Below the pieces are notes generated by a model. The model did not search any database and was not told the origin of the DNA. It saw nothing but the letters and a program-made list of their open reading frames with translations. From a bacterium UBP8_UBA817 (GTDB taxonomy: Bacteria; Margulisbacteria; Marinamargulisbacteria; CAMDBA01), in assembly GCA_945888995.1 (NCBI GenBank), contig CAMDBA010000002.1, forward strand, positions 73,690 through 137,689: a DNA stretch of 64,000 nucleotides. Reading direction: 5' to 3'. The translations under genes and the position numbers were made by a program. Positions 6,350 through 51,147 of the stretch are shown here, in pieces (the stretch's first letter is position 1; each line of letters opens with the position of its first letter).

Positions 6350-7855
6350 ATGATCTTTTCAATTAAAAAAGTGGATGTATTTAGTCAACAAACCGATGTT
6401 TTGGTAGCACCTGTATTTAAAAACGAAAGCCTTTTATCTTCCGATTTAAGAGTGCTGGATCGATTATTGGAAGGGAAGCTGTCGGAGCTTTTTGACGAAA
6501 AAACATTGACCGGAAAAGATAATGAAGTCGTGGTTATCCATGGATTTGGTGAATTAAAAGCCAAACGTCTTCTATTAGTCGGACTGGGCGAACGATCTGC
6601 TTTGACCTGTGAGAAATTACGTAAAGCAGCAGGTGAAATCGTGAGAAGAGCTAAAGGAGCAAAGGCAAAAAAAGTGGTCTGGTTATGGGATATCGGAACT
6701 CTTGATGCTGCAGATACTACGCAGGCCGTGGCCGAAGGCGCAGTCATGGGCGGATATACTTTTGACTGCTATAAAACCAAACCTGAAAAAAATGAAAAAC
6801 CCACCAAGATTAAAGAAATAGTATTAGCGGTACCTGATTCAGAACATATTTCTGCCATGGAATCGGCAGTTATAACCGGCCTGGTCATTGGGGAATCGGT
6901 TAACATCGCACGTGATTTAGCCAATATGCCGCCGAACGACTTAACCCCATCAGCGTTTGTAGATCTGGCCAAAAAATATCTGGATGGACAAAAATCGATT
7001 ATGATTGACGTTATTGATAAAAAGAAAGCAAAAGCTTTAGGAATGCACGCATTTTTAGGCGTAGGTCAGGGCACTGTCGAACCTTGTTATATGCTGGCGG
7101 TTTCCTATCATCCTATGAAAAATAAAAAGCCCATCGGGCTTGTGGGGAAAGGCGTCACATTTGATACCGGAGGTATTTCCATAAAGCCGTCAAAAGGAAT
7201 GGAAGAAATGAAAGGCGATATGAGTGGAGCAGCAGCAGTTCTGGGTACGGTGATCGCCTTGTCAAAGCTTAAAGTTCAGACCAATGTCTTAGCTGTAATG
7301 CCTTTGAGTGAGAATATGCCCTCCGGTTCTGCACAGCGTCCCGGTGATATCGTCGCTGCAATGAATGGGAAAACGATTGAGATTACCAACACCGATGCGG
7401 AAGGTAGACTGATTTTGGCCGATGCGCTATGTTATGCCGTTACTAAGGGGTGCTCTCAGTTAGTCGATATTGCGACTCTGACAGGTGCATGTCTGGTTGC
7501 CTTAGGAGATCAGGCAGCGGCAATACTCGGGTCTGATCAGGGCATGATTGATACCTTTCTAAAGGTTGGGGAGCGGACCGGCGAGCGTTTATGGCAATTG
7601 CCACTTTATGAAGAATATTTTGACTATATTAAATCGGATTCTGCGGATATGGTGAATTCATCCGAAAACCGGCTGGCAGGCACCGCCGTAGGTGCAATAT
7701 TCCTGAAGCAATTTGTCGGGGATACGCCGTGGGTGCACCTTGATATTGCCAGTATGATGCACTATTCCAAAGTATCCGGTTATACGGTCAAAGGGATGTC
7801 GGGTGTGGGGGTTCGGACCCTCGTTGGATATTGTCGCCAACAGTCTGGGCTTTAA
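6350..7855 (+). CDS. pepA: leucyl aminopeptidase (M17)
   Basis: 501 aa; NTDAEGRL signature and M17 catalytic core. Confidence 0.88.
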   Translation: MIFSIKKVDVFSQQTDVLVAPVFKNESLLSSDLRVLDRLLEGKLSELFDEKTLTGKDNEVVVIHGFGELKAKRLLLVGLGERSALTCEKLRKAAGEIVRRAKGAKAKKVVWLWDIGTLDAADTTQAVAEGAVMGGYTFDCYKTKPEKNEKPTKIKEIVLAVPDSEHISAMESAVITGLVIGESVNIARDLANMPPNDLTPSAFVDLAKKYLDGQKSIMIDVIDKKKAKALGMHAFLGVGQGTVEPCYMLAVSYHPMKNKKPIGLVGKGVTFDTGGISIKPSKGMEEMKGDMSGAAAVLGTVIALSKLKVQTNVLAVMPLSENMPSGSAQRPGDIVAAMNGKTIEITNTDAEGRLILADALCYAVTKGCSQLVDIATLTGACLVALGDQAAAILGSDQGMIDTFLKVGERTGERLWQLPLYEEYFDYIKSDSADMVNSSENRLAGTAVGAIFLKQFVGDTPWVHLDIASMMHYSKVSGYTVKGMSGVGVRTLVGYCRQQSGL

Positions 7856-9563
7856 ACCGGGTTTTACCCTTATGCTCGAATTTGAGCATCGGAACACCGG
7901 GCAGATATTCTTCCTGAGAAACAGCCGTGATACGCCGTAACGCATACAAAATGACGCCAATTTTTTTTGCTTGCTCGGCAATAATCCGGCTTACCCAAAC
8001 AAGTTTCGGGTCCAGATTGGCTTCCTGAGTGAGCTGTTGGGCGCCGAGAAGGATCGACGTGAGAGGTGAGTTAATCTCGTGATTGAGGGTAATGACGGTT
8101 TTAGTGACGGCGGCGAGTTTAAGCGTTTCTTCGATTTCTTTTACTTGTTGGGCAACCCGTTTTTCAAGAGTTTGGAGTAATTCTTTATTTTCCTGGTTGA
8201 GTTGTTGAAGGTGTTCAAACACCCGTACCCGTTCATACACGACCGTAATATGAGAGGCCAGTGTTTCGAGCAGCGTAATATCCTGTAGTGAATAGGCGTC
8301 CCCCGAATATTTTTTTTCTAGCGCCAGGAAGCAGAGTAGCTGGTTTTCCAAAATACCTGGAACAGCCAGTGAAATACGATTTTCTTTCAAATATTCTCTC
8401 AATGTACAATCGAATTCGGAGGATAGAATCACTTTCTTTTCGGAGAGTAAACGCGAAACCAATGGATCAGACTCATCCAACGTATCAGGCAGAGCGATAG
8501 ACGAACCGACATTTTTGCCCGCAAGATAGAAATTCTGAGATACAAAATGAGATCTCCGGTCTTCGACATAAAGGACAAGCGGCATCTCTAGCTCTTTTCT
8601 AAACAAGTCTAATAGGACATCGAGAAGATCCGCCAGGCTGACGCAGCCCGTTAAGCGGTGAGAGACTTTTTTTAAGACTTCCTGATAGTTATACCGGCCT
8701 TTCAAAAAGAGACTATCTGAGCTGGTTTGAATAACATATCGCACTTTTTGAAACGTTAAGATGATAACTGACGTATATAAAATCTGGAATAATAAAAATA
8801 GTGCGTCTGATCTGCGGCTCGAAAATTGATGGAAAATATATACCGACGAAAAGCTGATAAAGATATAAAAAGCGGCTGTTGTGGCCAATGCGACACTTCG
8901 GCTGATCATGATGGGGATTTCTACAAGCCGGTGCCGTGTAATAGCGATAAATGTGGTAATGACTAAAAACGATGTGAATAGCGGACTGAATTGATCAAAT
9001 TCCGTATATCCCACCATCGGCAAAATGATGCTTGCCGCAGCACATGAAAATCCTGACAAAATCGTGCCGGCTATAAAGTATTGAAGACGCATCGCATAAA
9101 TTCCCCGGTGCAATCTAATCTGTGCCATGGCTACTCCAACGATACCGGCAACGTAAGAAAGGAAATAAACCGCAAATATAGGACACCCGATCCCATAAGC
9201 TGTAGTAGAAAATGTCGGCGCGCTTTGAACAATGGCAGGTGTAACCGAAAGCCCGATCATCCAGATAGGGGGAATCCAAATGAGTCCTAATATCCACCCA
9301 TTGAGCCCGCTAAATTTTCTAGGATAAAAAAGTGCGAACATCAGAATGAATGGCGGAATAATACTTGCGATTACAAATGAAACTCTCGTCCAAAACAGGA
9401 TATTGGTAGAATTGTGGACCAGATAGACGGACGCAATCCACGCGGCAATTCCAAGCGCACCCAGAAAAAAAGAAATGTTGGCGGGATTGGTTCTGTGTTT
9501 ATAAAAAATAAGCCAACCAAGTAGACAATTGGCCGCGATTAAAAATAAATAGATATAGATCAT
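7788..9563 (-). CDS. multi-pass membrane sensor protein with GAF domain and histidine-kinase DHp/H-box but no HATPase_c domain
   Basis: 591 aa; ~8 predicted TM helices in first ~300 aa; central GAF-like region; C-terminal H-box LNHEINSPLTSI followed by only ~95 aa (two-helix DHp), no N/G1/F/G2 boxes; C-terminal 68 nt overlap the 3' end of pepA on the opposite strand. Confidence 0.6.
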   Translation of the reverse strand: MIYIYLFLIAANCLLGWLIFYKHRTNPANISFFLGALGIAAWIASVYLVHNSTNILFWTRVSFVIASIIPPFILMFALFYPRKFSGLNGWILGLIWIPPIWMIGLSVTPAIVQSAPTFSTTAYGIGCPIFAVYFLSYVAGIVGVAMAQIRLHRGIYAMRLQYFIAGTILSGFSCAAASIILPMVGYTEFDQFSPLFTSFLVITTFIAITRHRLVEIPIMISRSVALATTAAFYIFISFSSVYIFHQFSSRRSDALFLLFQILYTSVIILTFQKVRYVIQTSSDSLFLKGRYNYQEVLKKVSHRLTGCVSLADLLDVLLDLFRKELEMPLVLYVEDRRSHFVSQNFYLAGKNVGSSIALPDTLDESDPLVSRLLSEKKVILSSEFDCTLREYLKENRISLAVPGILENQLLCFLALEKKYSGDAYSLQDITLLETLASHITVVYERVRVFEHLQQLNQENKELLQTLEKRVAQQVKEIEETLKLAAVTKTVITLNHEINSPLTSILLGAQQLTQEANLDPKLVWVSRIIAEQAKKIGVILYALRRITAVSQEEYLPGVPMLKFEHKGKTRFKAQTVGDNIQRGSEPPHPTSL

Positions 9564-9754
9564 AAGTTATATTAAAGGGCCATAGTGAAAAATGAATATA
9601 TTGATACTATTATATCCTTTTTTTTCACAATTCGGATGGGTCATTTCATCGGTATAAAAAGGCCCGGTTTGCATCAAGAATGATCGATGTTTAAGGCGGA
9701 CTTATAAAGGGTAATTAGTTAAGAGCGATATCTTGTATAAAAGGTGGGGTGGGA

Positions 9755-10675
9755 ATGAATGTAATTAACTCAAGACAAGATTCTTCTCCGGATTTCTCAG
9801 ATTTTTTAAGCAGGCGGTTTCTATCTCAAGGGAATGGTGCCCAACCGACAACACCTTTAGTGGCGATGGCGGAAAAAATCGCAGCCCTGGAATCAGAATT
9901 GGCGGGCTATAAAAAAATGAAAGACGATGTCGTGAAGCAGTTAATCGAAATCCGTGAGAATAACCATGACATGAAAAATTATATGACACCTTTAAAGATT
10001 TTCCTGCAAATGGTATCAAAGGAAATTACAGACACTAAACTTCTTAAATTTATTGAGTCTCTTCGCTACGATACGCTGCCCAAAATAGAAGAAGTATATT
10101 TGAGTGTAGATAACAATGCGGCTGAGTTGGGCCAGACATCTAAAGTTTATACGAGGGTTTTAAATTTATCGGAAGAGTTAACACGGTTTTTAGAACATAT
10201 CGCCATTCAAAATCCAGGGATCACGATTGCCTCAGATATTCATTATACCGGGTTTATTCGAACCAGCACCCGGATTTTTTTTGATAAAGTATTGAAAAAT
10301 TGCATCATTAATTCCGTTCAGGCAATCCGTGAAAAACATATTGCGAACGGCAATGTCATAGTGGAATTACATGATGTGACGAGCTATCGGAATCGCTATA
10401 ACGATAAAGTTTGTTTCGATCAATTCGAAGAGTCCGATATTATGATCGTTTGCAGGGATAACGCTGGAGGTCTTCCTCAGCAACTGGAGCACCGATTTTT
10501 TGATATGGGATTTACGTATAATAAGCCGAGTGGGACAGGTGTGGGCACCGCTTCGGTCCGAACCTCGGTAGAGGAAAAGCTATTTGGCAAAATCGCACTT
10601 GAAAATAAAGAAGGTGCGGGCTTAGCCATTCATATGAAATTTTCAGGATCATTAGAAGATAAGAGCGCGTCATAA
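9755..10675 (+). CDS. soluble sensor histidine kinase (HisKA + HATPase_c)
   Basis: ORF begins with GTG at 9749; ATG at 9755 preceded by AAGGTGGGGTGGG RBS; coiled-coil N-terminus; H-box HDMKNYMTPL, N-box NCIINSVQAI, G1 DNAGGLP, F-box FFDMGFT, G2 GTGVGT. Confidence 0.75.
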   Translation: MNVINSRQDSSPDFSDFLSRRFLSQGNGAQPTTPLVAMAEKIAALESELAGYKKMKDDVVKQLIEIRENNHDMKNYMTPLKIFLQMVSKEITDTKLLKFIESLRYDTLPKIEEVYLSVDNNAAELGQTSKVYTRVLNLSEELTRFLEHIAIQNPGITIASDIHYTGFIRTSTRIFFDKVLKNCIINSVQAIREKHIANGNVIVELHDVTSYRNRYNDKVCFDQFEESDIMIVCRDNAGGLPQQLEHRFFDMGFTYNKPSGTGVGTASVRTSVEEKLFGKIALENKEGAGLAIHMKFSGSLEDKSAS

Positions 10676-10687
10676 AGGAGAATCGGT

Positions 10688-11923
10688 ATGTCTGTTGAAA
10701 CGATTGTGGTCATTGAAGAGGGCACGGCTATTGCGGATATGTTAGAAAAGGAACTGATGAAACCGCATCAGATTTTAACTTTTTTGGAAGCGAATGAGGC
10801 AACTTACCAAGCCATACAGGCCCGATATGATGATTTAAAAGAGTATGTGGCGCTTATCATAGTCCAGGAGACGGAATTGTTGGACGGAATCGCGGTTTTT
10901 CGTCAACTCTCTCAGAGATTGTATTTCCCGAATGTACTGATTGTGACTAATGACCGGGATCTGGAACGCAGTATCGTTGCTATGAAGGAAGGCTGTGTTG
11001 ATTACCTTATTGCACCTGGCATGGAGACACTCAAGGCTCATGTTGAAGATATCTGTAAAAAATCGATTCATAAGATATCGGATCACTATGACAAATTCGA
11101 AGTCCAAAACGAACTCGTATACAAACGAACTCTAACGCGTGAAGTAGAGCTTAAAACCTATATCGATGAAAACCGTGTGTTGACCCAGGAAGAACGCAGC
11201 GCTATTCGGTATGCCAGTGGTCCGGAAGTCGGCAAGACCTGGGAATCCGTTATTGATGACATCGAATTATCTTCAACCCGAAAACCGCATGTCCTAATTG
11301 TTGACGACGAAGAAATGCAGAGGGAAAGTCTGGCAGAATATTTATGCGATGACTATGAAACGGTAATGGTGGGCAGCTCAGAAGCCGCACTGGCCTATAT
11401 GGCGGAGCATCCGATTGATGTGGCGCTATTGGATATTCGGATGGAAGGAATGCCCGGAGACGAATTGCTTAGGCAGATCCGGCAGATTTCACCGTTGATA
11501 TCGGTTATTATGGTGACGGCTTATCCTGATACCGCTACGGCCGTTCAAACATTGGGAGATGGCGCGGTTGAATTTCTCAATAAGCAATCCTACACGGAAG
11601 AGGCTTTATTGGCGGCGGTGAAACGTGCTGCTGAAATGAAATATTATCGGGATCATTATATTTGTCAGGATTTGCTGTTCGAACGCCGGCTGAAATTGTG
11701 GAAAAAATATTACATGGGAGGGTGTCATAAAGCGCAGATCCTACTCAGGGATTTTTATGTGTTTTTTCCTGAATTTTGGGTTGAATCTGTTGATGAGCAA
11801 CTTCCGATAAAGCCGGATTATGTTTTAGGTGACTTGGATGAATTCGTTGAAAAGATGAGAACGGTTTATGAAAAAGAAGAAGCCAGAGTAGAAGAAAAAG
11901 TGATGCAGGAGAATGCCCTTTAA
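10688..11923 (+). CDS. response regulator with degenerate N-terminal receiver, canonical receiver and uncharacterised C-terminal domain
   Basis: 411 aa; starts 13 nt after the kinase stop; second domain has DD (LIVDDEE), phospho-Asp (ALLDIRM), Thr (MVTAY), Lys (FLNKQ); first REC-like domain lacks the phospho-acceptor Asp and the conserved Lys; last ~95 aa have no recognisable HTH. Confidence 0.7.
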   Translation: MSVETIVVIEEGTAIADMLEKELMKPHQILTFLEANEATYQAIQARYDDLKEYVALIIVQETELLDGIAVFRQLSQRLYFPNVLIVTNDRDLERSIVAMKEGCVDYLIAPGMETLKAHVEDICKKSIHKISDHYDKFEVQNELVYKRTLTREVELKTYIDENRVLTQEERSAIRYASGPEVGKTWESVIDDIELSSTRKPHVLIVDDEEMQRESLAEYLCDDYETVMVGSSEAALAYMAEHPIDVALLDIRMEGMPGDELLRQIRQISPLISVIMVTAYPDTATAVQTLGDGAVEFLNKQSYTEEALLAAVKRAAEMKYYRDHYICQDLLFERRLKLWKKYYMGGCHKAQILLRDFYVFFPEFWVESVDEQLPIKPDYVLGDLDEFVEKMRTVYEKEEARVEEKVMQENAL

Positions 11924-12063
11924 ATAATCGGTTTTTTTTATATCATAGGGCATCCGTATTTACGACGTACCCCGTTTTTTGCAGTAGCATAATAAAATAT
12001 GAAATATTCTCCTCTCCGATACGATACTTACTGATGCGGATAGGATGGTAGGACTAATACCTT

Positions 12064-15000
12064 ATGGATGCGCAATACCATATTACTGAAATATTATTTG
12101 AAAATAATCAGGTCAGCCTATGTAGAGGGATAATGTCGGGTGCTCCTTGCTTAATTAAGCGGCTTAAACCGCTGGAAGATTCCCGCAGAGAAGTGTCTCA
12201 GCTTGCGTACGAATACCGAATTTCTAAGTCGTTTGAATCGGACTACTGCTTGGATCCTGTTACAGTAGAGATGTTCGATCACACACCGGCCATTGTTTAT
12301 TCCTATCATGAAGCGGATTTATTAAGTTGTTTAATGGATAAGCGGATATTTTCCGTGTCTGAAGTGCTGAGCCTCGGAATAGAAATCCTGAAAGCACTCA
12401 CGGAAATTCACGGAAATTTTGTAACGCACCGTCTGCTCAGCCCTCATTCGATCTTTTGGAATGGGAATACCAAAAAAGTAAAGATAATTAATTTCGGATC
12501 TGCGGTTTCGTTTTTACAGGATTCGATTTCGTATAAAGCTGCATTATTGGCCGATGATCGGGATCGAGCTTATATCGCGCCTGAATGTTTAAAAGAAGGG
12601 TCGTCCTATGACTTTCGTGCTGACTTTTTTTCGCTGGGAATTCTTTTGTATGAATTATTTTTAGGGCATCCGCCGGATTATCATAGCGCTATGTCGTCTT
12701 TATATGACAGCAAGCCCACCATCCCCCGTGCCATATCGGACATCGTTCAAAAGTTATGCTCATTTAATATCCAGGATCGGTATAAAAGTGCGCAAGGCGC
12801 TTTATATGATTTGGAAAAATGTGCGGAATTGCTTCAACCGACCGGTTCTATTGCCTATTTTTACCCGGGGCAGGAAGATGTGCCGACGTTTCTAATGTTT
12901 CCGGAAAATGTATACGGACGCGAAGCGGAAGATAAATTCTTAAGTTTGATCATTAAATCTATTTGTTATGGGCAGCCGAAATGTTGTCTGGTATCAGGGT
13001 ATTCGGGGATCGGAAAAACGACGCTGATTATGCAGGCTTTGCAATCGGAAACCCTCCAATATTGCCATGCCTTGAAAGGAAAGGGCGAACAAACTGGAGA
13101 GCGTCGGCCATATGGGTTATTCAGACGTGCGTTTACTGAATTTGTATTTAAAATTTTACAAGCGGGTCAAACCTCCGTGTCCTATTGGCGAGATCATATC
13201 CTAAAAGCAGTCGGGGAACTTAATGGCCAGGTAATTGTGAATGTCATACCCGAGTTTGAATTTATTCTCGGATCACAGCCTGCTTTATATACCATCACCT
13301 CTCAAGAGGCTCAAAACCGTCTGGAGGAAACCTTTTGCTGTTTATTTCATGCGCTTTCAAATGTAGAGCATCCATGTCTTTTTTTTGCGGATGATTTGCA
13401 TTGGGCGGATGAAGAGTCGTTACGCCTGTTAAGCGTGATCGTTAATCAAAGAATGCCCTATTTTGGCCTGATCGGCACCTATCGAAGTAATGAAATTTCG
13501 ATGGATAACCCTCTTAATACTTGGCAAGATAACAGTCTGATTCCGATTGAGACGATCGTCCTGCTACCTCTGCATTTACATGATGTTAAATGCTATATGG
13601 AAGAATTATTAAATTGCACTTCCGATCAGATCGATGTCTTTTCATTTATGGTGTACGAAAAGACAAAAGGAAATCCGTTTTTTATGAAGCAGTTTTTGCG
13701 ATCGCTATATGATCAGAAGCTGCTTTATTTTGATATCAAAACCCAGAGCTGGTTATGGGACCAATCCGCGATCAGTAAAATTACCGTATCGGAAAATGTG
13801 GCCGATATGCTAGAAGAACAGCTCAATTATCTTTCTGAACCAACCAAGTCGCTGCTTATGATGGCCGCTTGCTTAGGTACAATGTTTGATATCAAAACTT
13901 TAAGTAATATTTGCTACCGTCCTTTTATTCAATTATCGTCTGAAATATGGGAAGCCTGTCAGAAAGGCCTTCTTATTCCGCTCAACGACATTGATATTTT
14001 AGATATCGATATTCACCATGTCGATACGACAAAGTGGTATCGCTTTGCCCACGATAAGATACAAGGAGTGGCCTACTCGCTTATTCCAGCGGATGAAAAG
14101 CCGGAACTTCACCTTAAAATTGGCCGGAATTTGAAAAAATTCTATGTTGAAAATCAATCGGACGAATGCCTGTTTGCAGCCGTTTATAACCTAAATTTAG
14201 CGACCCATCTTATACCGGATGATCGGGAGAAATATGAGCTGGCCCGTCTTAATTTCATGGCCGGCGAAAAATCAAAAGAAGAGTTAGGATTTAAATCAGC
14301 CAAAGATTATTTTTTGACTGCCACGGGTCTTTTAAGGGCAACATATTGGAATACGGAGTTTGAATTCTTAATGTCGGTATGGCTTAATTATGCGGAGACA
14401 TTAGCAGTGTGTAATGATTTTAAAGGGGCCGAGCGCACTTACCGAAAACTACTCGACTATGCCAAAGAGCCTCTCGATAAAGTGCGAATATATATCAAAA
14501 TGGTAGTGCTCTATACGGCGTCTATCCAATATCCTCTGGCCATTGAAAGCGGATTAGACGGCTTGGCGTTACTGGGTTTGACGGTTCCCAAATATTGCAG
14601 GAAATGGCTTTTAATTGTCGAAGTATTAAAGTTTCAGATTTATCATAGGCGAACCGATGTTCATGAATTGATTCACCGGCCGATTTTTAAAGATAAGTCT
14701 TCGATCTTATTAATCGATATGATGAATGCGCTAGCGGTTCCGATATATTTTAGCAATCAAATCCTGGGCCAAATATTATTGTTACGGGTATTGAATTATT
14801 CATTGCGCCGGAATTGCGTCACAACGGCGTCATTTTTGTATCTTGCGGTAGGTATCGTGATCAATCATATTTTGCAGAAACCTTGGTGGGGCTATCAATT
14901 TGCAAATTTAGCGATTGATCTTAACGAAAAATATCATTTGGTCCAACAAAAATGCAAAACTCTTGAATTATTAGGCACGTTTTTTATGCATTGGGTAAAG

Positions 15001-15864
15001 CCTGCGTACGAAGCCTTGGAGGTTTTGGAACGTGCTTATTCAGCAGGTCTTGAAACGGGCGACTATTATTTTGCAGGTCTTGCTGCGTCTAATTTAATGG
15101 GAATCTCAATGATTTGCGGGATTCATCTGGAAACCATTTTAAAGATGGGCCACCGCGCGGATGAGGTGTTTGTGAAACAATCCTTGTCGGATGTGACTCG
15201 CAAGGTAGATTTACAAAAAGATCTGATTGAAGCCTTGATGACGAGTCAGGAAAAAACACTCGCGATTTTTTGTAATGGATATATTTTAAACGTAATAAAC
15301 CGCACAGGGAATCAAACCGCGATGGCGTATTATTATTCACTTAAACAAATGATCTTTTATCTTTTTGATCATCCCGATGCTCTCGAAGCGGTGGATCATT
15401 CCCAGGAATATCATATTTATTCCGCAGGCTTATACTATTACCCTGAGCATCGTTTCTTTCAAACACTTATTTTAATTCGGCATTACCGAAAGGCCACATG
15501 GTTTAAGAAAGTCCAGTTTCTTAAAATTATTCGGCGTAATATCGCTCAGCTTCAACGGTGGGCAAAGCATTCACCTATTAATTTTCGGCATAAAGGGCTA
15601 ATTTTGCAGGCTGAATTAATGAGGCTCCAAGACAAAAAAACAGAAGCTGAAGGATTTTATAAGCAAGCATTATCCGACTTTACTGGGGATTACTTTGCGC
15701 ATAATAAAGCCATTGCCTCAGAATGCTATGGCCAGTTTTGTCTGGAAAATGGAAAGCTAGAGCAAGCTTCCCTATATATTAAGCAATCCAGATGTCTCTA
15801 TTATCTCTGGGGTGCCACTGCCAAAGTCGAAGAAATGGACAAACGGTACCCCGGTTTTTTATAA
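12064..15864 (+). CDS. STAND-type NTPase with N-terminal Ser/Thr pseudokinase domain, AAA_16 ATPase and C-terminal TPR-like repeats (PknK/MalT-like architecture)
   Basis: 1266 aa; kinase fold present (VAIK-like CLIKRL, APE, DFFSLG subdomain IX) but HRD->HRL and DFG->NFG, Gly-loop degenerate; Walker A GYSGIGKTT, Walker B LFFADDLHWADEES; long helical/TPR-like C-terminal half. Confidence 0.7.
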   Translation: MDAQYHITEILFENNQVSLCRGIMSGAPCLIKRLKPLEDSRREVSQLAYEYRISKSFESDYCLDPVTVEMFDHTPAIVYSYHEADLLSCLMDKRIFSVSEVLSLGIEILKALTEIHGNFVTHRLLSPHSIFWNGNTKKVKIINFGSAVSFLQDSISYKAALLADDRDRAYIAPECLKEGSSYDFRADFFSLGILLYELFLGHPPDYHSAMSSLYDSKPTIPRAISDIVQKLCSFNIQDRYKSAQGALYDLEKCAELLQPTGSIAYFYPGQEDVPTFLMFPENVYGREAEDKFLSLIIKSICYGQPKCCLVSGYSGIGKTTLIMQALQSETLQYCHALKGKGEQTGERRPYGLFRRAFTEFVFKILQAGQTSVSYWRDHILKAVGELNGQVIVNVIPEFEFILGSQPALYTITSQEAQNRLEETFCCLFHALSNVEHPCLFFADDLHWADEESLRLLSVIVNQRMPYFGLIGTYRSNEISMDNPLNTWQDNSLIPIETIVLLPLHLHDVKCYMEELLNCTSDQIDVFSFMVYEKTKGNPFFMKQFLRSLYDQKLLYFDIKTQSWLWDQSAISKITVSENVADMLEEQLNYLSEPTKSLLMMAACLGTMFDIKTLSNICYRPFIQLSSEIWEACQKGLLIPLNDIDILDIDIHHVDTTKWYRFAHDKIQGVAYSLIPADEKPELHLKIGRNLKKFYVENQSDECLFAAVYNLNLATHLIPDDREKYELARLNFMAGEKSKEELGFKSAKDYFLTATGLLRATYWNTEFEFLMSVWLNYAETLAVCNDFKGAERTYRKLLDYAKEPLDKVRIYIKMVVLYTASIQYPLAIESGLDGLALLGLTVPKYCRKWLLIVEVLKFQIYHRRTDVHELIHRPIFKDKSSILLIDMMNALAVPIYFSNQILGQILLLRVLNYSLRRNCVTTASFLYLAVGIVINHILQKPWWGYQFANLAIDLNEKYHLVQQKCKTLELLGTFFMHWVKPAYEALEVLERAYSAGLETGDYYFAGLAASNLMGISMICGIHLETILKMGHRADEVFVKQSLSDVTRKVDLQKDLIEALMTSQEKTLAIFCNGYILNVINRTGNQTAMAYYYSLKQMIFYLFDHPDALEAVDHSQEYHIYSAGLYYYPEHRFFQTLILIRHYRKATWFKKVQFLKIIRRNIAQLQRWAKHSPINFRHKGLILQAELMRLQDKKTEAEGFYKQALSDFTGDYFAHNKAIASECYGQFCLENGKLEQASLYIKQSRCLYYLWGATAKVEEMDKRYPGFL

Positions 15865-15872
15865 GAATTAGT

Positions 15873-16589
15873 CTAGGAATGTTCGCCGGTTAAGACGAGT
15901 TCCGAAACGTGTGTTGAAACTTCTTTATTAGAATCCAATGTTAAAACCGTGTAGCGGTTAGACCAGACCGACCCTGTGATTTGAGCTGAAATATTAGGGA
16001 ATTGGTTTCTCAGGAAGCTGGATGAAAGCGATTTTAAACCCTTTGTAAATTCATGGACACTTGATTTAGGATCGATGTCCAGAACCATTGTAATTTCAGT
16101 ACCACTGACTTGCAGGTGATAAAGGGCATAAGTTAATTCTGAAATCGTTTCTTCAATTAATTTTTGAAGCGCATCTCTGACCGGCTCATCTGCCAAGATC
16201 GATTTTTCTGATTTTGTTTTCCAAGAGATTAAGTAGGTGCATTTATAAACGACTTCGTCTTTTTCATAAACGCCTGCAGGAACTGCGAATGAACTTGCCT
16301 GGAAGGTAGGTGTTCCGTTTTCCTGATGCAGCGCGTCATAGAAAATAAGATCCGGTTTGATACGCCCGAAAAACGCGGCTGCAATAAATTGCTTTTTTTC
16401 ATCTTCGGTCAGGCTGAGCGTTTCAGCGAGTTTTTGACAAATTGGAAAAGTAGGCGGGGTATAGCCTAATTCGAGTTTTCGGATATAACCGTCAGATTTT
16501 TGTATAGCTTCGGCTAAGTCAACTTTATACAAATCTCTATCTAATCTAAATTTTCTTAGCAAATCGGCAAATGGAGGTGGCTTTATCAT
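15873..16589 (-). CDS. XRE-family helix-turn-helix protein fused to uncharacterised C-terminal domain
   Basis: ORF extends to 16670, but AAAGGAAA RBS precedes the ATG at 16589 (MIKPPPFADLLRKFRLDRDLYKVDLAEAIQKSDGYIRKLELG = HTH_3/Cro-C1 type); ~170-aa C-terminal region with no recognisable motifs. Confidence 0.6.
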   Translation of the reverse strand: MIKPPPFADLLRKFRLDRDLYKVDLAEAIQKSDGYIRKLELGYTPPTFPICQKLAETLSLTEDEKKQFIAAAFFGRIKPDLIFYDALHQENGTPTFQASSFAVPAGVYEKDEVVYKCTYLISWKTKSEKSILADEPVRDALQKLIEETISELTYALYHLQVSGTEITMVLDIDPKSSVHEFTKGLKSLSSSFLRNQFPNISAQITGSVWSNRYTVLTLDSNKEVSTHVSELVLTGEHS

Positions 16590-16706
16590 AATAATTTCCT
16601 TTTCATTAACGGGGTCTTTGATATTACTACTTCGACTCATGCCAGCACGACAGTAAATATTTACTACCATTTTTGGTATGGTTTTTCAACTAGGAAAAAT
16701 AAACGC

Positions 16707-16735
16707 TTGACAAAACCCTCTCGGTTCGGTACTAA
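16707..16735 (+). promoter_or_regulatory. sigma70-like promoter (TTGACA-17nt-TACTAA)
   Basis: TTGACA at 16707-16712, 17-nt spacer, TACTAA at 16730-16735; lies in the divergent intergenic region upstream of small ORF 16740..16931. Confidence 0.35.
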
Positions 16736-16739
16736 TTAA

Positions 16740-16931
16740 ATGCACTATATTTCAGAAGTGGAGGATGGCAGAGTGGGTAGGAAAAAAATGAAAAAAGAAG
16801 ATCTCATTTTACGGGAGCTCATAAAAAAGTTATTGGTTGAGCATATCCGGGGCCGGGAAAAAGGCGTTTCCGACATTTCTTTTAGGATGCCGACGGAGCT
16901 ACATTACTGTCGGGTAGGTGCTCGCGGATAA
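16740..16931 (+). CDS. small hypothetical protein (47-63 aa, Lys/Arg-rich)
   Basis: ORF behind the consensus promoter; internal ATG (MKKEDLILRELIKKLL...) has a GGTAGGA RBS-like sequence ~7 nt upstream; no recognisable family; ends 1 nt before the convergent FAD-oxidoreductase stop. Confidence 0.25.
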   Translation: MHYISEVEDGRVGRKKMKKEDLILRELIKKLLVEHIRGREKGVSDISFRMPTELHYCRVGARG

Positions 16932-16932
16932 T

Positions 16933-17967
16933 TTATAGGATAAACCGGTTTAGGTTGACGTCCTTGTCAATGGGGTGGGAGCAAAGTAAGTGCTGGCATA
17001 GTTGACGGGCATAGTAGGGCGCTACCATAAATCCTTTGGATCCAAATCCGTTTAATACGCCGATTTTGGGCCGATGTTTATGGAAGCCTACAATCGGATG
17101 GTTATCCCGGCTGATGGGTCTAACGCCGGCTTCTTGAACAAGAAGAGTCGACGGTGGAATCCATTCATCTAAAGAAGCATGTAGTTTTTCATAGCCAGTT
17201 CGACTCGGGGCCCAGTCGGCTGTATCCCAGTCATAAGTTGAACCGTATTTGAAAGCGCCGTCCCCAATCGGCAATAAAATATGGTCTCGGCAGAAAATAT
17301 GGGTTTGAGGCAACGTTGTATTTTTGATGGTCCAGACTTCTCCTTTTGCATGTCGAAACCGGATGTTATCGAAGAATGGATTATGAATGATTTGAGAACC
17401 TTCGCAAAAAATCACGCGCCGTGCCCGGATATCTCTCCATTCGATGTGATCGGTTTCTTCTCTGAAGTCTGAGAATGAAAATTGATCGGAAATAAGGAGG
17501 TGCCGGTTTGAAAAATAATCAGTAAATGCGGTTAAAAGCGATTCCGATAGAATGCTGAAACTGGATGTGGTTTCAATGCCTTCTAAAGGTAAACGGAATC
17601 CGGGCATTATGCCGGTCGATCCAACAATGTAACGGTGAAAATCCGGGTCATCGCGACGCTTGGGCCATAGCGCTTCAGTGATAGGGTCCCGAATAAACCG
17701 GATAACGTTTTTACGGGTGATCAGCCGACGACAAAAAACCGTTTCGAGGCTTTCGTAGAATTGTTTTGCGAAGGGGATCAGCAGCTCTGCTTTCCAGGAC
17801 AGAGTCAAGCGTTTTCCCGATAAAGGATCAACAATGCCACCGGCTATTTTGGACGAAGAAAATCGGTGCCGATTGTCAATAATGGCGAATTTAGCGGATG
17901 TCTGGGAAAGGTAATACCCTAACGTAGAGCCCGCTAGTCCTTGCCCGACAATCAAGACATCAAGCAT
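16933..17967 (-). CDS. FAD-dependent oxidoreductase (DAO/ThiO-like family)
   Basis: 344 aa; N-terminal dinucleotide fold VLIVGQGLAGS; C-terminal RPISRDNHPIVG and GFGSKGFMVAP motifs typical of the DAO family. Confidence 0.6.
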   Translation of the reverse strand: MLDVLIVGQGLAGSTLGYYLSQTSAKFAIIDNRHRFSSSKIAGGIVDPLSGKRLTLSWKAELLIPFAKQFYESLETVFCRRLITRKNVIRFIRDPITEALWPKRRDDPDFHRYIVGSTGIMPGFRLPLEGIETTSSFSILSESLLTAFTDYFSNRHLLISDQFSFSDFREETDHIEWRDIRARRVIFCEGSQIIHNPFFDNIRFRHAKGEVWTIKNTTLPQTHIFCRDHILLPIGDGAFKYGSTYDWDTADWAPSRTGYEKLHASLDEWIPPSTLLVQEAGVRPISRDNHPIVGFHKHRPKIGVLNGFGSKGFMVAPYYARQLCQHLLCSHPIDKDVNLNRFIL

Positions 17968-23080: not shown

Positions 23081-25153
23081 TTAAGGTTGTTTGAACAACG
23101 TCGGAAACAGAGGCTTGGGAGAAGCATACATTAGCATGCTCTCCCAAGATTTCCGGTTGAGCTGAGAATAAGTAGTGCGGTTTAGCGGATAAAATGGGAT
23201 GAATCCACCTCTCGCTACCGTATAGGTGCCCCGTTTTTGTCCGACCAATATCCATGCTTCCTGAACAGGCCCTGTTGCGCCTTGCAATAGAGCGTAGGGG
23301 GACTTATAAAGTGTCGCGATAGTCGTAGTCGGTCGATTTAAATAACCGGTTTTAGACGCAGATTCCAAAAAAAGTGCCATGTGATCTTGTTCATCGTGCG
23401 TCATCATGGTGCCTTCGAGTTCTTTTTTAGAAACCGACTCAAGATATCTGGCATAGGCATATAATTCCTGGAGACGCCAGTTGACCGGAAGATTTAGAAT
23501 GTAGCGATCTTTAAGGCCTTGGCGAAAACTCATGACAATATCGGCTAAACGGGCATAAGCCAACGGCTGAGGTTCAACATAAAATGTTGCGCCCTGGAAT
23601 GTCAGAGGGGTATGCACTGTAACCGAGTCTGCAGAAAGACTGTCGGACAAAAGAGGGATCATACCGGAAAAGAACGTATTAAGTTTAAGTTGGCCCCAAG
23701 CATGGCTCTGCATAAAAGGGGGGTAGGCTGCATTTTTTGGAGATCCGAGTGTCTTTAATGCATAGGCCCATCCTAGATCTAGCTGCTGTGTCCATGTCGT
23801 TGACGGGAGCTGTGAGACAAGTGAGTGAAGCCGGGTCTGTATTTGCTTATAATGAGGAAAAGAAGGTGCGGTAGGGGATGTGTACGTGCCCAGCACAGCC
23901 GATAAGTCGGTTATCGAGGGTGAGAGCCGTCTTTGACCTGCTGAATTCTTGCTGACATTCGGGAAAACTAATTTGTCCAATAGGGCCTGACTGACAGAGT
24001 AATCAGGAGAAATAAATCGGAAATATCGGTTTTTCCGGACGCCATTATTCGAAAAGCCGAATAATGAGTCAGATTTATAAGACAAAAGGCCTTTTTGAAA
24101 TGCTTTGAATTTCTCGGCGTCTTCGGTTAGTTTTTGGAGTGTAAGCTCATTTTGATAAAGAAAATCGGCCATGCCTTTTATTTGGTAATAGGTGGGGTCG
24201 TATGTTCTTCCTTTAATAAATTGCCAAGGTTCGGCAACTTGACGCCAGTAGGTTTGAACGGCCGGTTTTTTGAGTGCCATCGCCATCAATAATATAGAGC
24301 GTACTTCATCTTCCTGGGTGCTTCGGAAACGGATTTGGGAGTACCAGGTCATGGCCCGGTAATATTGTCTCAGGCCGGCTGAAGCTGCGTAAGATTCCGG
24401 GATTTGATAGAGAGTGTAATTTTGCTTGGGGTAGGGAAGAGAGGGTTTTTGCCGGGTTAATCGTTGCAGTGCGTTTTGTCTCGGACGGATGCCCATGACG
24501 GGTGATTTCGCTATACCCTTTGCGGATTGGATAAGATGAAGCTCATATTGGACTTCTTTACGAACAATTTGAGGAATTGGAACCGTGGGGTCTAAGAGTT
24601 GTGTGGCGACCGAAAAGAATGCGACGTTGCGTTTTGCCGCACTCTTGTAGGGGGTGTCTTTTAGATCGTAATAATATTCCAGAGATGAAAATAACATCGC
24701 AACACTTAAACTTTTAAGCTTAGGAATTAATAAATCGGTTGAGAAGTCCCGAATAATATCGTTCATCATTTGGCCATAAAGGTGAAAGATAAAATCCGTA
24801 CTGATAAAAGAAGGGGTAGATTGAGATCGGCTAGCGGAAAAAAACTCATGATAGGTCGAATAAGAAGTGGGCCGTATGATAAATCCTTGTGCTAGGAGTG
24901 CCTTTTTTTCATCGCGAGACAAAGGCAGCTTTGATAGGGCCTTTCTGGCGTCATTTGTATAGTGGGGTGCGGCATAAAGATCTAGCGGATCCGGCCTAGA
25001 AGGCATCCAGTCACTGAATGCAGGTACGGCATAGGTTTTAAAGGGAAGAACCGGCCGTGATATCGTCGTCTTTGCTTTATATAGAAAGAAGCCCCCCGTT
25101 AAACTAATCGCTAAGAGTGCCAGACAGGTAAGAAGAAGAGGTTTTTTTTTCAT
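23081..25153 (-). CDS. secreted/membrane-anchored protein of unknown function (690 aa)
   Basis: N-terminal signal peptide/anchor MKKKPLLLTCLALLAISLTGGFFLY; no motifs I can assign; stop 3 nt from the convergent leuA stop. Confidence 0.5.
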   Translation of the reverse strand: MKKKPLLLTCLALLAISLTGGFFLYKAKTTISRPVLPFKTYAVPAFSDWMPSRPDPLDLYAAPHYTNDARKALSKLPLSRDEKKALLAQGFIIRPTSYSTYHEFFSASRSQSTPSFISTDFIFHLYGQMMNDIIRDFSTDLLIPKLKSLSVAMLFSSLEYYYDLKDTPYKSAAKRNVAFFSVATQLLDPTVPIPQIVRKEVQYELHLIQSAKGIAKSPVMGIRPRQNALQRLTRQKPSLPYPKQNYTLYQIPESYAASAGLRQYYRAMTWYSQIRFRSTQEDEVRSILLMAMALKKPAVQTYWRQVAEPWQFIKGRTYDPTYYQIKGMADFLYQNELTLQKLTEDAEKFKAFQKGLLSYKSDSLFGFSNNGVRKNRYFRFISPDYSVSQALLDKLVFPNVSKNSAGQRRLSPSITDLSAVLGTYTSPTAPSFPHYKQIQTRLHSLVSQLPSTTWTQQLDLGWAYALKTLGSPKNAAYPPFMQSHAWGQLKLNTFFSGMIPLLSDSLSADSVTVHTPLTFQGATFYVEPQPLAYARLADIVMSFRQGLKDRYILNLPVNWRLQELYAYARYLESVSKKELEGTMMTHDEQDHMALFLESASKTGYLNRPTTTIATLYKSPYALLQGATGPVQEAWILVGQKRGTYTVARGGFIPFYPLNRTTYSQLNRKSWESMLMYASPKPLFPTLFKQP

Positions 25154-25311: not shown

Positions 25312-25388
25312 GGCGGCGTAGCTCAGGTGGTTAGAGCACACGGTTCATACCCGTGGTGTCACTGGTTCGACTCCAGTCGCCGCTACCA
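25312..25388 (+). tRNA. tRNA-Met (anticodon CAT; could also be tRNA-Ile2 or the initiator)
   Basis: 77 nt cloverleaf: acceptor GGCGGCG, D-arm GCTC/GAGC, anticodon stem CACGG/CCGTG with loop TTCATAC, T-arm ACTGG-TTCGACT-CCAGT, encoded ACCA. Confidence 0.85.
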
Positions 25389-25430
25389 TATTATTGTTTA
25401 TCACGTAATTTTGATAAGAAAGAGGTCATT

Positions 25431-28172
25431 ATGAAAACCTGGTTCAAACTCCTGGCACCGTGTGTGGTCGCACTGGGGCTTTTAGTCACATTTATCGGAT
25501 TAAAACTGTTGCCGGATATTTTGTGGTTTGATTCTTTCGGATTAAAAACAGTCTGGCTCACGACTTTCTCAACGCGACTAGCTGTGTTTTTTGCTTTTTT
25601 TGGCATTGCGCTTCTCGTGCTTTGGACAAACCTCAAGCTTACCCATCGGTTTTCTTCTGAGCCGGTCAATCTCAAAACACTCAGTTTTAAACCGCCCTTT
25701 GATTTCCTAAATGAACTGATTGCCCGGTATGCTGAAATGGATGCGCTGAAAAGAGGCCTCACGTTTCCGGCAAAAATTTACCGGTTTTTATTCTATGTCG
25801 GTATGTTTGTCTTAGCCTTATTTTTTGGATTTTCAGCAGCAGACCGATGGATGAAAATCGCATTGTTTATTAAGAAAACGCCATTTAATTTAGCCGATCC
25901 GGTTTTTAATAAAGATATTGCGTTTTATGTGTTTTCTCTTCCGTTTTGGCAATTTTTACAAGGATGGCTTTTTGCGCTATTGGGTATTGCCCTTGTGACC
26001 AGCATTTGGATTTATTTTTCTAAGCGGGTTGTATTCCTGATTTTTAGTTCTCAAACGCCTTCAAAAGGATTAAAAGCGCATCTTTTTATTTTATTAGGCG
26101 GTATTTGTTTATTACTTGGGTTCGGGGCATGGATGAATATGTTCGAACTATTGACTACAAAACATGGCGTAGTATTCGGAATCGGGTTTACCGATGCGCA
26201 TATTAGGCTTCTCGCCGCCAAAATCACAGCGGTTCTGCTTTTTGTGCAAGCACTGATATTTTTTATCTGCGCGTTTAGACGAAATATTCTTCTACCGGTT
26301 TATACGTTAGGGTTTTTATTGGCAGTCTCAGTAGTTTTTAATCTTGTATTACCAGCCGCTATTCAAAAATACGTTGTGGAACCTAATGAATATGAACGGG
26401 AAAAACCGTATATCTTAAATAATATTTTATTTACCCGAATTGGATTTAATCTCAATTCCATTCAGGAAGTCTCATTTCCGGCAAAACAAAATCTGACTGC
26501 ACAAGATATTCAGGACAATAAAAACACCATTCAAAACGTAAGATTGTGGGATCCGGATCCATTGAAGCGGACCTTTTCGCAGCTTCAGGAAATCCGCCTG
26601 TATTATGAATTTAATAATATCGACATTGATCGCTATAAAGTAAACGGTAATATCCGTCAGGTAATGCTATCACCTCGCGAATTAAATACGTCTCAATTAT
26701 CAACGCAAGCGCAGACATGGGTGAACCAGCATCTCGTCTATACACACGGTTACGGCCTATGTATGTCGCCGGTAAATGAGGTAACAACCGAAGGGTTGCC
26801 GAATTTCTATATTAAAGATCTTCCGCCAAAATCGATTCATGGCCTCAATATTACTAGACCCGAGATTTATTTCGGTGAAGACACGATGAACTATATTATA
26901 GTGAATACCAAGCAGCAGGAATTCGACTATCCAAAAAATGAAACGAATGTCTATGCCAGCTATAAAGGAAAAGGCGGCGTTACCTTAAATACATTCTGGA
27001 AAAAAGCCTTGTATGCGCTTCATTTTTCAGAGCTGAATATCTTTATCAGTTCATTAATTACCCCTGAGAGCCGTGTAGTGTATGACCGTGACATTAAGAC
27101 CATTGCCCAAAAAGTCGCGCCGTTTCTCTCGTTTGATTCGGATCCATACCTGGTGCTAACACCGGAAGGGCGGATGGTCTGGATGTTAGATGCCTATACC
27201 TACTCGCAAAAATTTCCTTACTCCGAATCGACGCAATTTGGCGTTAATTATATCAGGAATTCAGTCAAAGCCACGATCGATGCCTATGATGGCGAAGTGC
27301 ATTTTTATGTCGTAGACCAACAGGACCCATTGATTGCATCGTATTCTAAGCTATATCCCGATCTTTTTGAGCCGTTCAGCAATATGCCGAAGGGGTTGCA
27401 AGAACATATTCGATACCCTCAGGATTTATTTGGGATTCAATCAGCTATTTACGCAACCTATCATATGAACGACACCCAGGTCTTTTATAACCGGGAAGAT
27501 GTCTGGAGTATTCCGAAAGATACGTTCTCCGATAAAGACTCGTTGATGGAGCCTTATTACATCGTCACCAAGATTCCCGGCGAACAGGACGAATCCCTCA
27601 TCTTAATGTTGCCCTTCACGCCGACTAATAAAAGCAACATGATCGCTTGGTTAAGTGCGAATTGTGACTTGGATCAATACGGCAAGCTTAAGGTATTTAA
27701 TTTCCCTAAAGATAAAACAATCTATGGTCCGTCTCAGATCGAGGCCCGAATCGACCAGGATACGGAAATTTCTCAAAAATTGACACTGTGGGGGCAAGCG
27801 GGTTCCCGGGTTATCCGTGGCAATCTAATGGTGATTCCGATGGAGGAATCATTGCTGTACCTGGAGCCGATTTATCTTCAAGCCACGCAAGGCCGCTTGC
27901 CGGAATTCAAACGGGTTATTTTGGCGTATCAGGATTCGATTGAAATGCAAGAAACTCTGGATAATGCGATTTCGGCAATTTTCGGTCAGAAGCGAACCAT
28001 CGAAAAGTCCCCTGTTTCAACAGGGCCGGCACCTGTTCGATCTAATGTTATCGAATCGCTTGCAAACGAGTTTCGCGCGTTTAAAGAAGCTGCAAAAACG
28101 GGTGATTGGGCCGTATTCGGTGAAAAGCTTAAAGCCGTCGAATCTAAAATCCGACAATTATCAGAACAATAG
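25431..28172 (+). CDS. UPF0182-family large membrane protein
   Basis: ORF track starts at 25353 inside the tRNA; real start is ATG 25431 with AGAAAGAGG RBS; N-terminal multi-TM region with DILWFDSFGLK motif characteristic of UPF0182, ~650-aa extracytoplasmic domain. Confidence 0.65.
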   Translation: MKTWFKLLAPCVVALGLLVTFIGLKLLPDILWFDSFGLKTVWLTTFSTRLAVFFAFFGIALLVLWTNLKLTHRFSSEPVNLKTLSFKPPFDFLNELIARYAEMDALKRGLTFPAKIYRFLFYVGMFVLALFFGFSAADRWMKIALFIKKTPFNLADPVFNKDIAFYVFSLPFWQFLQGWLFALLGIALVTSIWIYFSKRVVFLIFSSQTPSKGLKAHLFILLGGICLLLGFGAWMNMFELLTTKHGVVFGIGFTDAHIRLLAAKITAVLLFVQALIFFICAFRRNILLPVYTLGFLLAVSVVFNLVLPAAIQKYVVEPNEYEREKPYILNNILFTRIGFNLNSIQEVSFPAKQNLTAQDIQDNKNTIQNVRLWDPDPLKRTFSQLQEIRLYYEFNNIDIDRYKVNGNIRQVMLSPRELNTSQLSTQAQTWVNQHLVYTHGYGLCMSPVNEVTTEGLPNFYIKDLPPKSIHGLNITRPEIYFGEDTMNYIIVNTKQQEFDYPKNETNVYASYKGKGGVTLNTFWKKALYALHFSELNIFISSLITPESRVVYDRDIKTIAQKVAPFLSFDSDPYLVLTPEGRMVWMLDAYTYSQKFPYSESTQFGVNYIRNSVKATIDAYDGEVHFYVVDQQDPLIASYSKLYPDLFEPFSNMPKGLQEHIRYPQDLFGIQSAIYATYHMNDTQVFYNREDVWSIPKDTFSDKDSLMEPYYIVTKIPGEQDESLILMLPFTPTNKSNMIAWLSANCDLDQYGKLKVFNFPKDKTIYGPSQIEARIDQDTEISQKLTLWGQAGSRVIRGNLMVIPMEESLLYLEPIYLQATQGRLPEFKRVILAYQDSIEMQETLDNAISAIFGQKRTIEKSPVSTGPAPVRSNVIESLANEFRAFKEAAKTGDWAVFGEKLKAVESKIRQLSEQ

Positions 28173-51060: not shown

Positions 51061-51147
51061 TGCCGAGGTGGTGGAATTGGTAGACACACCAGCTTGAGGG
51101 GCTGGCGGGGGCAACTCTGTGCAGGTTCAAGTCCTGTCCTCGGTACC
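51061..51147 (+). tRNA. tRNA-Leu (anticodon GAG)
   Basis: 87-nt type-II tRNA: acceptor GCCGAGG...CCTCGGT-A-CCA, anticodon stem CCAGC/GCTGG with loop TTGAGGG, long variable arm, T-arm GGTTCAAGTCC. Confidence 0.85.

Follow-up and report, generated by a model that had tools for sequence, protein, structure and literature searches.

A divergent CP1/COG3899-type pseudokinase-STAND protein that ends before the family's C-terminal output domain

A stretch of 64,000 nucleotides from the bacterium UBP8_UBA817 (Margulisbacteria; Marinamargulisbacteria), contig CAMDBA010000002.1 positions 73,690 to 137,689 (GenBank assembly GCA_945888995.1) and referred to here as the window, encodes a complete 1266-amino acid (aa) protein in which a pseudokinase domain is followed by a STAND nucleoside triphosphatase (NTPase) and an α-helical solenoid. 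The gene occupies positions 12064–15864 of the window on the plus strand, stop codon included, and is the maximal open reading frame (ORF) there, with an ATG start. We are highly confident that its product is a divergent, output-less member of the CP1/COG3899 family with a non-catalytic kinase domain. The explanation we favor, and consider probable, is that it is a stand-alone CP1/COG3899 core with a dead kinase, working as a MalT/STAND-type switch whose output lies in trans. An earlier description made from the letters and ORFs alone (the sequence-only reading) missed that the protein belongs to a large family, already described, whose members are often pseudokinases. The architecture is one already known, here in a very divergent and shortened member of that family, and the true peculiarities of the protein are its missing C-terminal output and the loss of a family hallmark motif.

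Family membership and domain layout

A word-indexed search of 5.8 billion clustered proteins returned one cluster at 98% identity and then ~270 proteins at 25–30% identity and ~100% query coverage. With HMMER, an exhaustive search through 1.84 billion representatives yielded 9072 proteins at E ≤ 1e-30, each standing for a 50%-identity cluster, with a best identity of 32%. Family members aligned in single high-scoring segment pairs running from query ~5–1266 against subject ~7–1300 (E 1e-118 to 1e-166). Neither the word-indexed nor the exhaustive representative search gave a homologue between 98% and 32% identity, with the proviso that short fragments could sit below the top matches listed, and protein-query scans of genome contigs and metagenome contigs added no intermediate orthologue.

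Full-length relatives measure 1650–2200 aa and show the Pfam order Pkinase, AAA_16, GAF and/or PAS, and an output domain, which may be HisKA/HATPase_c, a guanylate/adenylate cyclase, GGDEF/EAL, PP2C/SpoIIE, STAS or a sigma54 AAA+ domain. NCBI names such relatives ‘trifunctional serine/threonine-protein kinase/ATP-binding protein/sensor histidine kinase’. They correspond to the CP1 kinases in the atlas of bacterial Ser/Thr kinases (bSTKs) by O’Boyle et al. (bioRxiv 10.1101/2025.01.12.632604), a cytosolic group in which fusion to the predicted ATPase COG3899 is universal and GAF/PAS frequent; ~40% of them are pseudokinases and the atlas gives their function as unknown (bioRxiv 10.1101/2025.01.12.632604; PMC12599244). 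The same family comprises the HstK or cbSTKIII ‘dual protein kinases’ of Anabaena and Nostoc (PMC2176072; PMC1262709), some of which are without a His-kinase part (PMC2176072). A phrase search of the literature on the experimental function of HstK-type or ‘trifunctional’ proteins gave nothing specific.

In common with this family, the window protein has a cytosolic kinase-like domain of degraded motifs directly before a COG3899/AAA_16 ATPase, which a long helical region follows. Of the sequence constraints that our census gave for the family, it follows three (no Gly-rich loop, GNPFF, and WGAxAKV near the C-terminus) and departs from the fourth, PEQTGRMNR. It also differs in having no C-terminal GAF/PAS or output and in losing four catalytic residues together, namely the Asp of HRD, the Lys and Asn of the catalytic loop and the Asp of DFG. 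The HstK/cbSTKIII proteins (Alr2258 HstK, Alr0709/Alr0710) are built on the same core, and the cyanobacterial relatives P0007, P0008 and P0013 match at 26–29% identity over 100% of the query. In HstK-type proteins, GAF and HisKA/HATPase_c are part of the same chain, and K, HxD and DFG/DFS are mostly intact; output and catalytic residues are both missing from the window protein.

The break with the family falls at its C-terminus. The protein ends three residues past the conserved WGAxAKVxxLExxYPxL, which precedes GAF in the relatives, and these extend 360–800 aa beyond that point with GAF and output. A tblastn search with 200+ family tails detected no GAF or His-kinase remnant 3' of the stop codon.

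Output-less cores make up a few per cent of the family; some are disrupted by insertion sequences (IS) and some lie beside separate His-kinase genes. Relatives shorter than 1400 aa were looked up individually. In one locus from another metagenome (L082, 1669–5980), the gene for a 1321-aa core (P0043) has its end overlapped by a DUF772 transposase gene. In a second such locus (L084, 8001–15397), a DDE_Tnp_1 IS stands between a 1266-aa core (P0288) and a GAF-HisKA-HATPase-REC gene, and an NtrC-type regulator is present as well. In both loci the IS breaks or shortens a family gene precisely where core and GAF meet, and the divided core in L084 shows how split forms arise. P0280 is a fragment at a contig end, and P0163 and P0246 are seemingly genuine output-less members with no kinase gene adjoining. 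The neighbor-joining (NJ) sister of the window protein, P0161 (L083, 460–6094), is likewise an output-less pseudokinase, with HRD Asp changed to Glu, Asn changed to Ala and a degraded hallmark motif. Its gene is overlapped for 23 nt by that of a membrane PAS-HisKA kinase, and it may provide a second instance of core and His-kinase in separate but paired genes.

In the window protein, Pfam assigned Pkinase to aa 16–235 (E 7.9e-22) and AAA_16 to aa 283–461 (E 2.9e-24); the sole TPR signal was a sub-threshold TPR_14 match at aa 772–798. AlphaFold2 (AF2) models were built from homologue alignments in two pieces, aa 1–500 and aa 460–1266. The first (predicted local distance difference test score, pLDDT, 88.1) shows a kinase fold and then a P-loop domain, with Staphylococcus aureus Stk1/PknB and CaMKII as the top PDB matches in Foldseek. 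The second (pLDDT 87.8) shows two winged-helix-like units and then an unbroken helical solenoid; its Foldseek matches were TPR proteins, among them the STAND-TPR protein PH0952 (PDB 6MFV), a likeness at fold level, and also Apaf-1. The closest structural match of the solenoid was MalT domain III. A sequence search of aa 261–1266 against PDB sequences gave zero matches.

The resulting layout consists of a pseudokinase domain of Hanks-type fold (aa 1–262; 12064–12849, plus strand, as are all features of this gene) recognized by Pfam, AF2 and Foldseek; an AAA_16 P-loop NTPase (aa 283–480; 12910–13503) recognized by Pfam; an arm or winged-helix region (aa 481–664; 13504–14055) of helix and β-hairpin units in the AF2 secondary structure; and a TPR-like α-solenoid as the putative sensor domain (aa ~665–1266; 14056–15861), matched at fold level. 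Walker A (GYSGIGKTT, aa 312–320; 12997–13023) and Walker B (LFFADDLHWAD, aa 439–449; 13378–13410) fall on family-invariant columns, GTYRSNE (13474–13497) lies within the same NTPase domain, and the family-invariant residues G312, G315, G317, K318, D443, D444, W447 and R474 are retained. Inside the arm region, KTKGNPFF (13660–13683) includes the GNPFF that is almost invariant across the family. The features by which STAND proteins are recognized, a P-loop with Walker A and B, winged-helix elements and a C-terminal repeat sensor, are all present. No convincing transmembrane segment was found, the highest Kyte–Doolittle 19-mer (1.75) lying within a confidently modeled solenoid helix, and the protein is predicted to be cytosolic. 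The AAA_16/STAND NTPase with its Walker motifs and the MalT-like sensor proposed in the sequence-only reading both hold. Its ~700 aa of TPR-like repeats stand in part: the region divides into ~600 aa of solenoid and ~180 aa of winged-helix/arm, and the resemblance is one of fold only, with no Pfam TPR model.

Residues, conservation and selection in the kinase-like domain

The motif register of the kinase-like domain was taken from an HMMER alignment to GRK2 and a MAFFT alignment with Mycobacterium tuberculosis PknB and 120 homologues, and both agree. In the HMMER alignments to solved kinases, FVTHRLLSPHSI falls on GRK2 FVVYRDLKPANI, and KIINFGSA stands opposite GRK2 RISDLGLA. The catalytic loop reads HRLLSPHS (12427–12450) in place of HRDxKPxN, with Asp replaced by Leu124, Lys by Ser126 and Asn by Ser129 when aligned to GRK2 YRDLKPAN, PknB and the family consensus HKDIKPxN. 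In the GRK2, PknB and family alignments, NFG (12490–12498) replaces DFG, the Mg-binding Asp becoming Asn143. The MAFFT alignment places FENNQV (12097–12114) at the site of the absent GxGxxG Gly-rich loop. Neither Asp nor Glu occurs in the catalytic loop (H122 to S129), and no acidic residue at the aligned positions compensates for this.

Other landmarks of the fold are kept. They include the β3 Lys K32 in CLIKRL (12148–12165), aligned to PknB K40; the αC Glu E50 in AYEYR (12202–12222), aligned to PknB E59; the APE motif beginning at A172; D187 of subdomain IX (DFFSLG); and R239 of subdomain XI (QDRY). A pseudokinase is defined by the loss of at least one of the VAIK Lys, HRD Asp and DFG Asp; here both Asp residues are replaced and K32 is retained. 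By its residues the N-terminal domain is predicted to be a catalytically dead Hanks-type kinase fold. This agrees with the sequence-only reading, in which the dead kinase (HRD to HRL, DFG to NFG) and the landmarks of β3 Lys, APE, subdomain IX and subdomain XI Arg had been noted: the Pfam Pkinase match, the GRK2 and PknB alignments and the AF2 fold support the former, and the residue alignments the latter. An intact catalytic Asp elsewhere, named there as evidence to the contrary, was looked for in the catalytic loop and none was found, and the N-domain does match a kinase fold.

Loss of catalytic residues at this position is a known and recurrent state in the family. Published losses among CP1 kinases are 34% for the VAIK Lys, 37% for the HRD Asp and 17% for the DFG Asp (bioRxiv 10.1101/2025.01.12.632604). 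Among 268 homologues aligned here, the β3 Lys is retained in 80%, the HRD Asp in 84%, the catalytic-loop Asn in 94% and the DFG Asp in 72%; the whole catalytic triad is retained in 60% and both Asp residues are lost in 7%. As to the conservation of the pseudokinase state, which the sequence-only reading had suggested checking in homologues, HRL and NFG occur in 7/7 population variants of the gene, and the state varies across the family as a whole.

Further family constraints come from our own census, distinct from the published CP1 pattern, and concern the Gly-rich loop, PEQTGRMNR, GNPFF and WGAxAKV. The Gly-rich loop is missing family-wide, with 2 incidental pattern matches in 239 sequences, and its loss is a family trait because no sampled member carries one. 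The sequence-only reading was right that it is absent here. After APE, the residues S/A-P-E-Q-T-G-R-M-N-R are 96–99% conserved in the 268 homologues and are kept even where K, HRD-D and DFG-D are lost. Such retention points to a constraint particular to the family and unrelated to catalysis, which may be contact with the ATPase. In the window protein the family alignment shows APE followed by CLKEGSS (12577–12606), with PECLKEGS in place of the PEQTGRMNR hallmark; among the 268 homologues, the motif is absent only here and in the 98% twin, and partly in P0161.

Of family columns at least 80% conserved, retention in the window protein is 54% for the kinase domain, 70% for the ATPase and some 75% for the helical part. 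Substitutions in conserved columns are radical in the kinase domain and mostly conservative in the ATPase. Median identity to the family is 27% for the kinase domain against a family norm of 40%, and 34.5% for the ATPase against a norm of 51%. The protein has the longest terminal branch in the NJ tree, and its kinase domain is the most degenerate in the sample.

All seven population variants are intact at 1266 aa and all read HRL and NFG. Against the 98% contig, the Nei–Gojobori ratio of nonsynonymous to synonymous rates (dN/dS) comes to 0.26 over the complete gene, significantly below neutrality at p = 5e-6, and to 0.14 over the kinase domain, where nonsynonymous changes fall below the neutral expectation (p = 0.005). 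Kinase, NTPase and solenoid domains are all under purifying selection. The ratios of the flanking pepA and argH are 0.02–0.03, and the constraint on the STAND gene is far looser.

Genomic neighborhood

The locus is surrounded by housekeeping genes, and its GC content is uniform with theirs, with argJ, argB, argF, argH, ndk and pepA upstream and an FAD oxidoreductase gene (DAO), rmuC, a Bax-inhibitor homologue, def and leuA downstream. Directly before the STAND gene on the plus strand are genes for a sensor-less histidine kinase (HK) of 308 aa (HK308; 9749–10675) and a response regulator (RR) of 411 aa (RR411; 10688–11923), with 12 nt between HK and RR genes and 140 nt between the RR and STAND genes. 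HK308 has a DHp H-box, NHDMKNYMTPL, and an intact CA domain (Pfam HATPase_c), in which N, G1, F and G2 boxes were read. RR411 has a degenerate REC, a canonical REC (aa 202–311) and a ~100-aa tail without assignment, Pfam Response_reg matching in two stretches. Divergent from the HK gene is a minus-strand HisKA_7TM-GAF-DHp gene (7788–9563; Pfam) with the H-box HEINSPL and no HATPase_c. Gene fission, by which the upstream HK or GAF-DHp gene would be the detached tail of the STAND gene, is not supported; the similarity to family tails is generic, at 25–38% over 60–140 aa.

A word-indexed search with HK308 recovered only itself. The one more distant relative found for any of these genes lies in another organism (L089; run SRR8857866), where a 58% identical HK orthologue precedes a 59% identical RR orthologue (P0300), and the HK-RR pair is a conserved unit in its own right. 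A scan with PepA gave no close relative among GTDB species representatives; in the 80 pepA loci matched (PepA 38–46% identical, mostly Chloroflexota/Dehalococcoidia metagenome-assembled genomes), no STAND, HK or 7TM-GAF relative was found near pepA. In near-identical metagenomic contigs the gene arrangement is unchanged, and the proteins of the window occur on ENA, NCBI and Logan contigs of up to 177 kb. A promoter and terminator scan of 9400–17100 gave counts equal to the shuffled expectation.

Convergent with the STAND gene and 8 nt past its stop lies a minus-strand gene (15873–16670) that combines an XRE-type HTH (HTH_3, aa ~33–91) with an IS200/IS605-type Y1 fold (aa ~127–249; Pfam; E 5.6e-11 to ISHp608 TnpA). 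The HUH motif of the Y1 fold reads E-I-T, the helix of the catalytic Tyr is gone, and no IS ends or hairpins were found flanking the gene. The product would seem to be a regulator in which a transposase domain, now catalytically dead, has been domesticated. No recent insertion is indicated, because the Y1 domain is without HUH, catalytic Tyr and IS ends; a recent IS-mediated truncation of the STAND gene was rejected on these grounds together with the lack of a GAF/HK remnant after the stop. The phosphorelay and HTH-XRE neighbors listed in the sequence-only reading are present as described, the HTH gene carrying the Y1-like domain in addition.

Elsewhere in the window, the family tails used in tblastn matched the start of a His-kinase-like gene at 63842–63985 (+), which continues beyond the window end. 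An Rfam scan of the window gave two tRNA genes alone, at 25312–25385 (+) and 51062–51145 (+), and nothing near the STAND locus. Two large, conserved proteins were also observed, a 689-aa DUF3160 protein (23081–25153, −) and a 939-aa UPF0182 protein (25353–28172, +; E 2e-292).

A possible switch with output in trans, and its alternatives

In the MalT/STAND class, a ligand relieves autoinhibition, and nucleotide exchange and multimerization follow. By analogy, we hypothesize that the window protein is a nucleotide-dependent switch of this type. Its solenoid would bind a small ligand, peptide or protein, and relief of autoinhibition would lead to nucleotide exchange and oligomerization of the NTPase. 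The dead kinase domain would serve as a non-catalytic docking, dimerization or allosteric module that could still bind nucleotide through K32/E50; the scaffolding or regulatory, non-catalytic role advanced in the sequence-only reading seems a sensible one. In fused relatives, GAF-His-kinase or cyclase outputs would be drawn together as the core multimerizes. In the window protein the signal would be handed on in trans through protein–protein contact, since no output domain exists in cis. The likeliest recipients would be the upstream, same-strand HK308 and RR411, and of the two HK308 stands out, since it lacks an input domain. The adjacency of the HK-RR pair, P0161 with its overlapping PAS-HisKA gene and the split in L084 point weakly toward output in trans.

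The choice of recipient is the weakest step of this explanation, and we regard action through the neighboring HK/RR pair as possible but doubtful. The sequence-only reading linked the STAND gene to the adjacent phosphorelay; the adjacency is real, but the HK-RR pair in L089 has no STAND neighbor. An extended version is unlikely in our estimation, though not negligible: an ‘unbundled’ trifunctional kinase, in which a dead-kinase COG3899 STAND core has shed its cis output and gates HK308 and the dual-REC RR in trans. Locus adjacency, the P0161/PAS-HisKA overlap and the family rule that couples the core to a His-kinase are hints of such an arrangement, in which the divergent 7TM-GAF-DHp protein, having no catalytic domain, might participate.

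Several observations weigh against the favored explanation. The HK-RR pair (58–59% identity) is followed in L089 by nuoA/nuoB with no STAND gene adjoining, and it therefore works without one; STAND adjacency is not conserved in the single comparison available. The STAND gene may have its own promoter within the 140-nt gap upstream of it. The HK and GAF-DHp neighbors resemble the C-terminal tails of the family only at the generic level of homology given above. With the near-invariant PEQTGRMNR lost, the protein may not work as other family members do, and N482 (13507–13509), just past the ATPase core, replaces the 99%-conserved His of YRDNEVxxxHPL. Among 120 sequences none is more divergent in either the kinase or the NTPase domain, and the proposed switch rests on analogy with MalT and other STAND proteins.

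The same divergence would fit a remnant, that is, a trifunctional kinase that lost its GAF-output tail through rearrangement or a mobile element and is now functionless or decaying. Truncation and splitting by IS in P0043 and P0288, the Y1_Tnp-derived gene 8 nt past the STAND stop, the longest terminal branch with the lowest identity to the family, and the lost catalytic and hallmark residues are all consistent with decay. A decaying gene accords poorly with a 3.8-kb ORF intact in 7/7 population variants, with dN/dS values significantly under neutral for both the gene (0.26) and the kinase domain (0.14), and with Walker motifs that are kept along with the majority of the invariant residues in NTPase and solenoid. 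Moreover, the ORF ends exactly at a domain boundary with no tail remnant, and the adjacent Y1 domain is itself inactive. We consider a remnant improbable. Selection on the kinase domain could instead reflect an atypical active kinase or nucleotide-transferring enzyme with relocated catalytic residues, as in WNK- or SelO-type proteins, and K32 and E50 are kept and Asn143 could still ligate metal. The HRD Asp, Lys and Asn have become L, S and S, however, leaving no acidic residue in the catalytic loop; the Gly-rich loop is absent, no acidic residue at aligned positions compensates, and a structural role predicts purifying selection equally. Such activity is extremely improbable.

An Avs protein has a toxic effector at its N-terminus and senses phage proteins with its C-terminal part, and the window protein resembles Avs and NLR-like proteins in its tripartite STAND layout, which is the generic common ground. 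The sequence-only reading accordingly placed the pseudokinase in the effector position of a candidate defense-type switch, and an anti-phage STAND/Avs-like protein with the pseudokinase as decoy or effector could also draw on the PADLOC kinase-containing models that match the N-domain and on the nearby XRE-HTH gene and rmuC. Those matches are confined to the generic kinase domain (mad6, PD-T4-6, MkoA, PglW, Stk2) with no Avs/NLR model among them, and NCBIfam defense models recognized the kinase fold only, far under their cut-offs (MAD6 92 bits against 460, PglW 47 bits against 990). The TOMM system kinase/cyclase fusion model TIGR03903 reached 77 bits against a cut-off of 705, over the ATPase/arm at aa 283–698 only, and no Avs, NACHT or other STAND defense model matched the NTPase or sensor region. 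The N-domain is the conserved kinase-like module of its family, in which output is C-terminal and consists of signaling domains (His-kinase, cyclase, GGDEF, PP2C, STAS, sigma54) and not toxic effectors; the window protein has no output at all. With housekeeping surroundings of uniform GC content, the locus lies outside a defense island. Neither the Avs-type effector position nor the defense role is upheld, and we judge the latter very unlikely.

Direct control of transcription by the STAND core, as in a regulator of PknK/MalT type, would agree with the similarity of the solenoid to MalT domain III and with an AAA_16 NTPase of the same broad class as those of MalT and PknK. PknK of Mycobacterium tuberculosis also has the same order of kinase, AAA_16 ATPase and MalT-like helical region. 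It is set apart by description, being an active kinase in a separate bSTK family of the atlas, and the full-length homology of the window protein is to CP1/COG3899, distinct from PknK (bioRxiv 10.1101/2025.01.12.632604). MalT of Escherichia coli is without an N-terminal kinase-like domain and the window protein without the LuxR DNA-binding output of MalT; the Pfam scan found no LuxR/GerE, other HTH or further DNA-binding domain in the 1266-aa protein. The adjacent HTH gene is convergent and so not co-transcribed. There is very little likelihood, in our view, that the core regulates transcription directly.

We return to the stand-alone core with output in trans as the explanation that best fits the protein. 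Apart from what it offers for the study of the family, the finding is an ordinary refinement of annotation and describes neither a new type of system nor a defense function. The family is very large, with more than 9000 50%-identity clusters (E ≤ 1e-30), and certain cyanobacteria and myxobacteria encode a dozen paralogues; to our knowledge none of its members has a defined signal, mechanism or structure. That a dead kinase domain is under purifying selection implies a selectable, non-catalytic role for the kinase-like module, and at 1266 aa without output the protein is a minimal natural construct for the biochemistry and structure of the COG3899 module. Were the unbundled arrangement true, the dead kinase domain would be a docking surface for a His-kinase, and the locus would be a tractable one for learning the role of the COG3899 module in thousands of bacterial signaling proteins.

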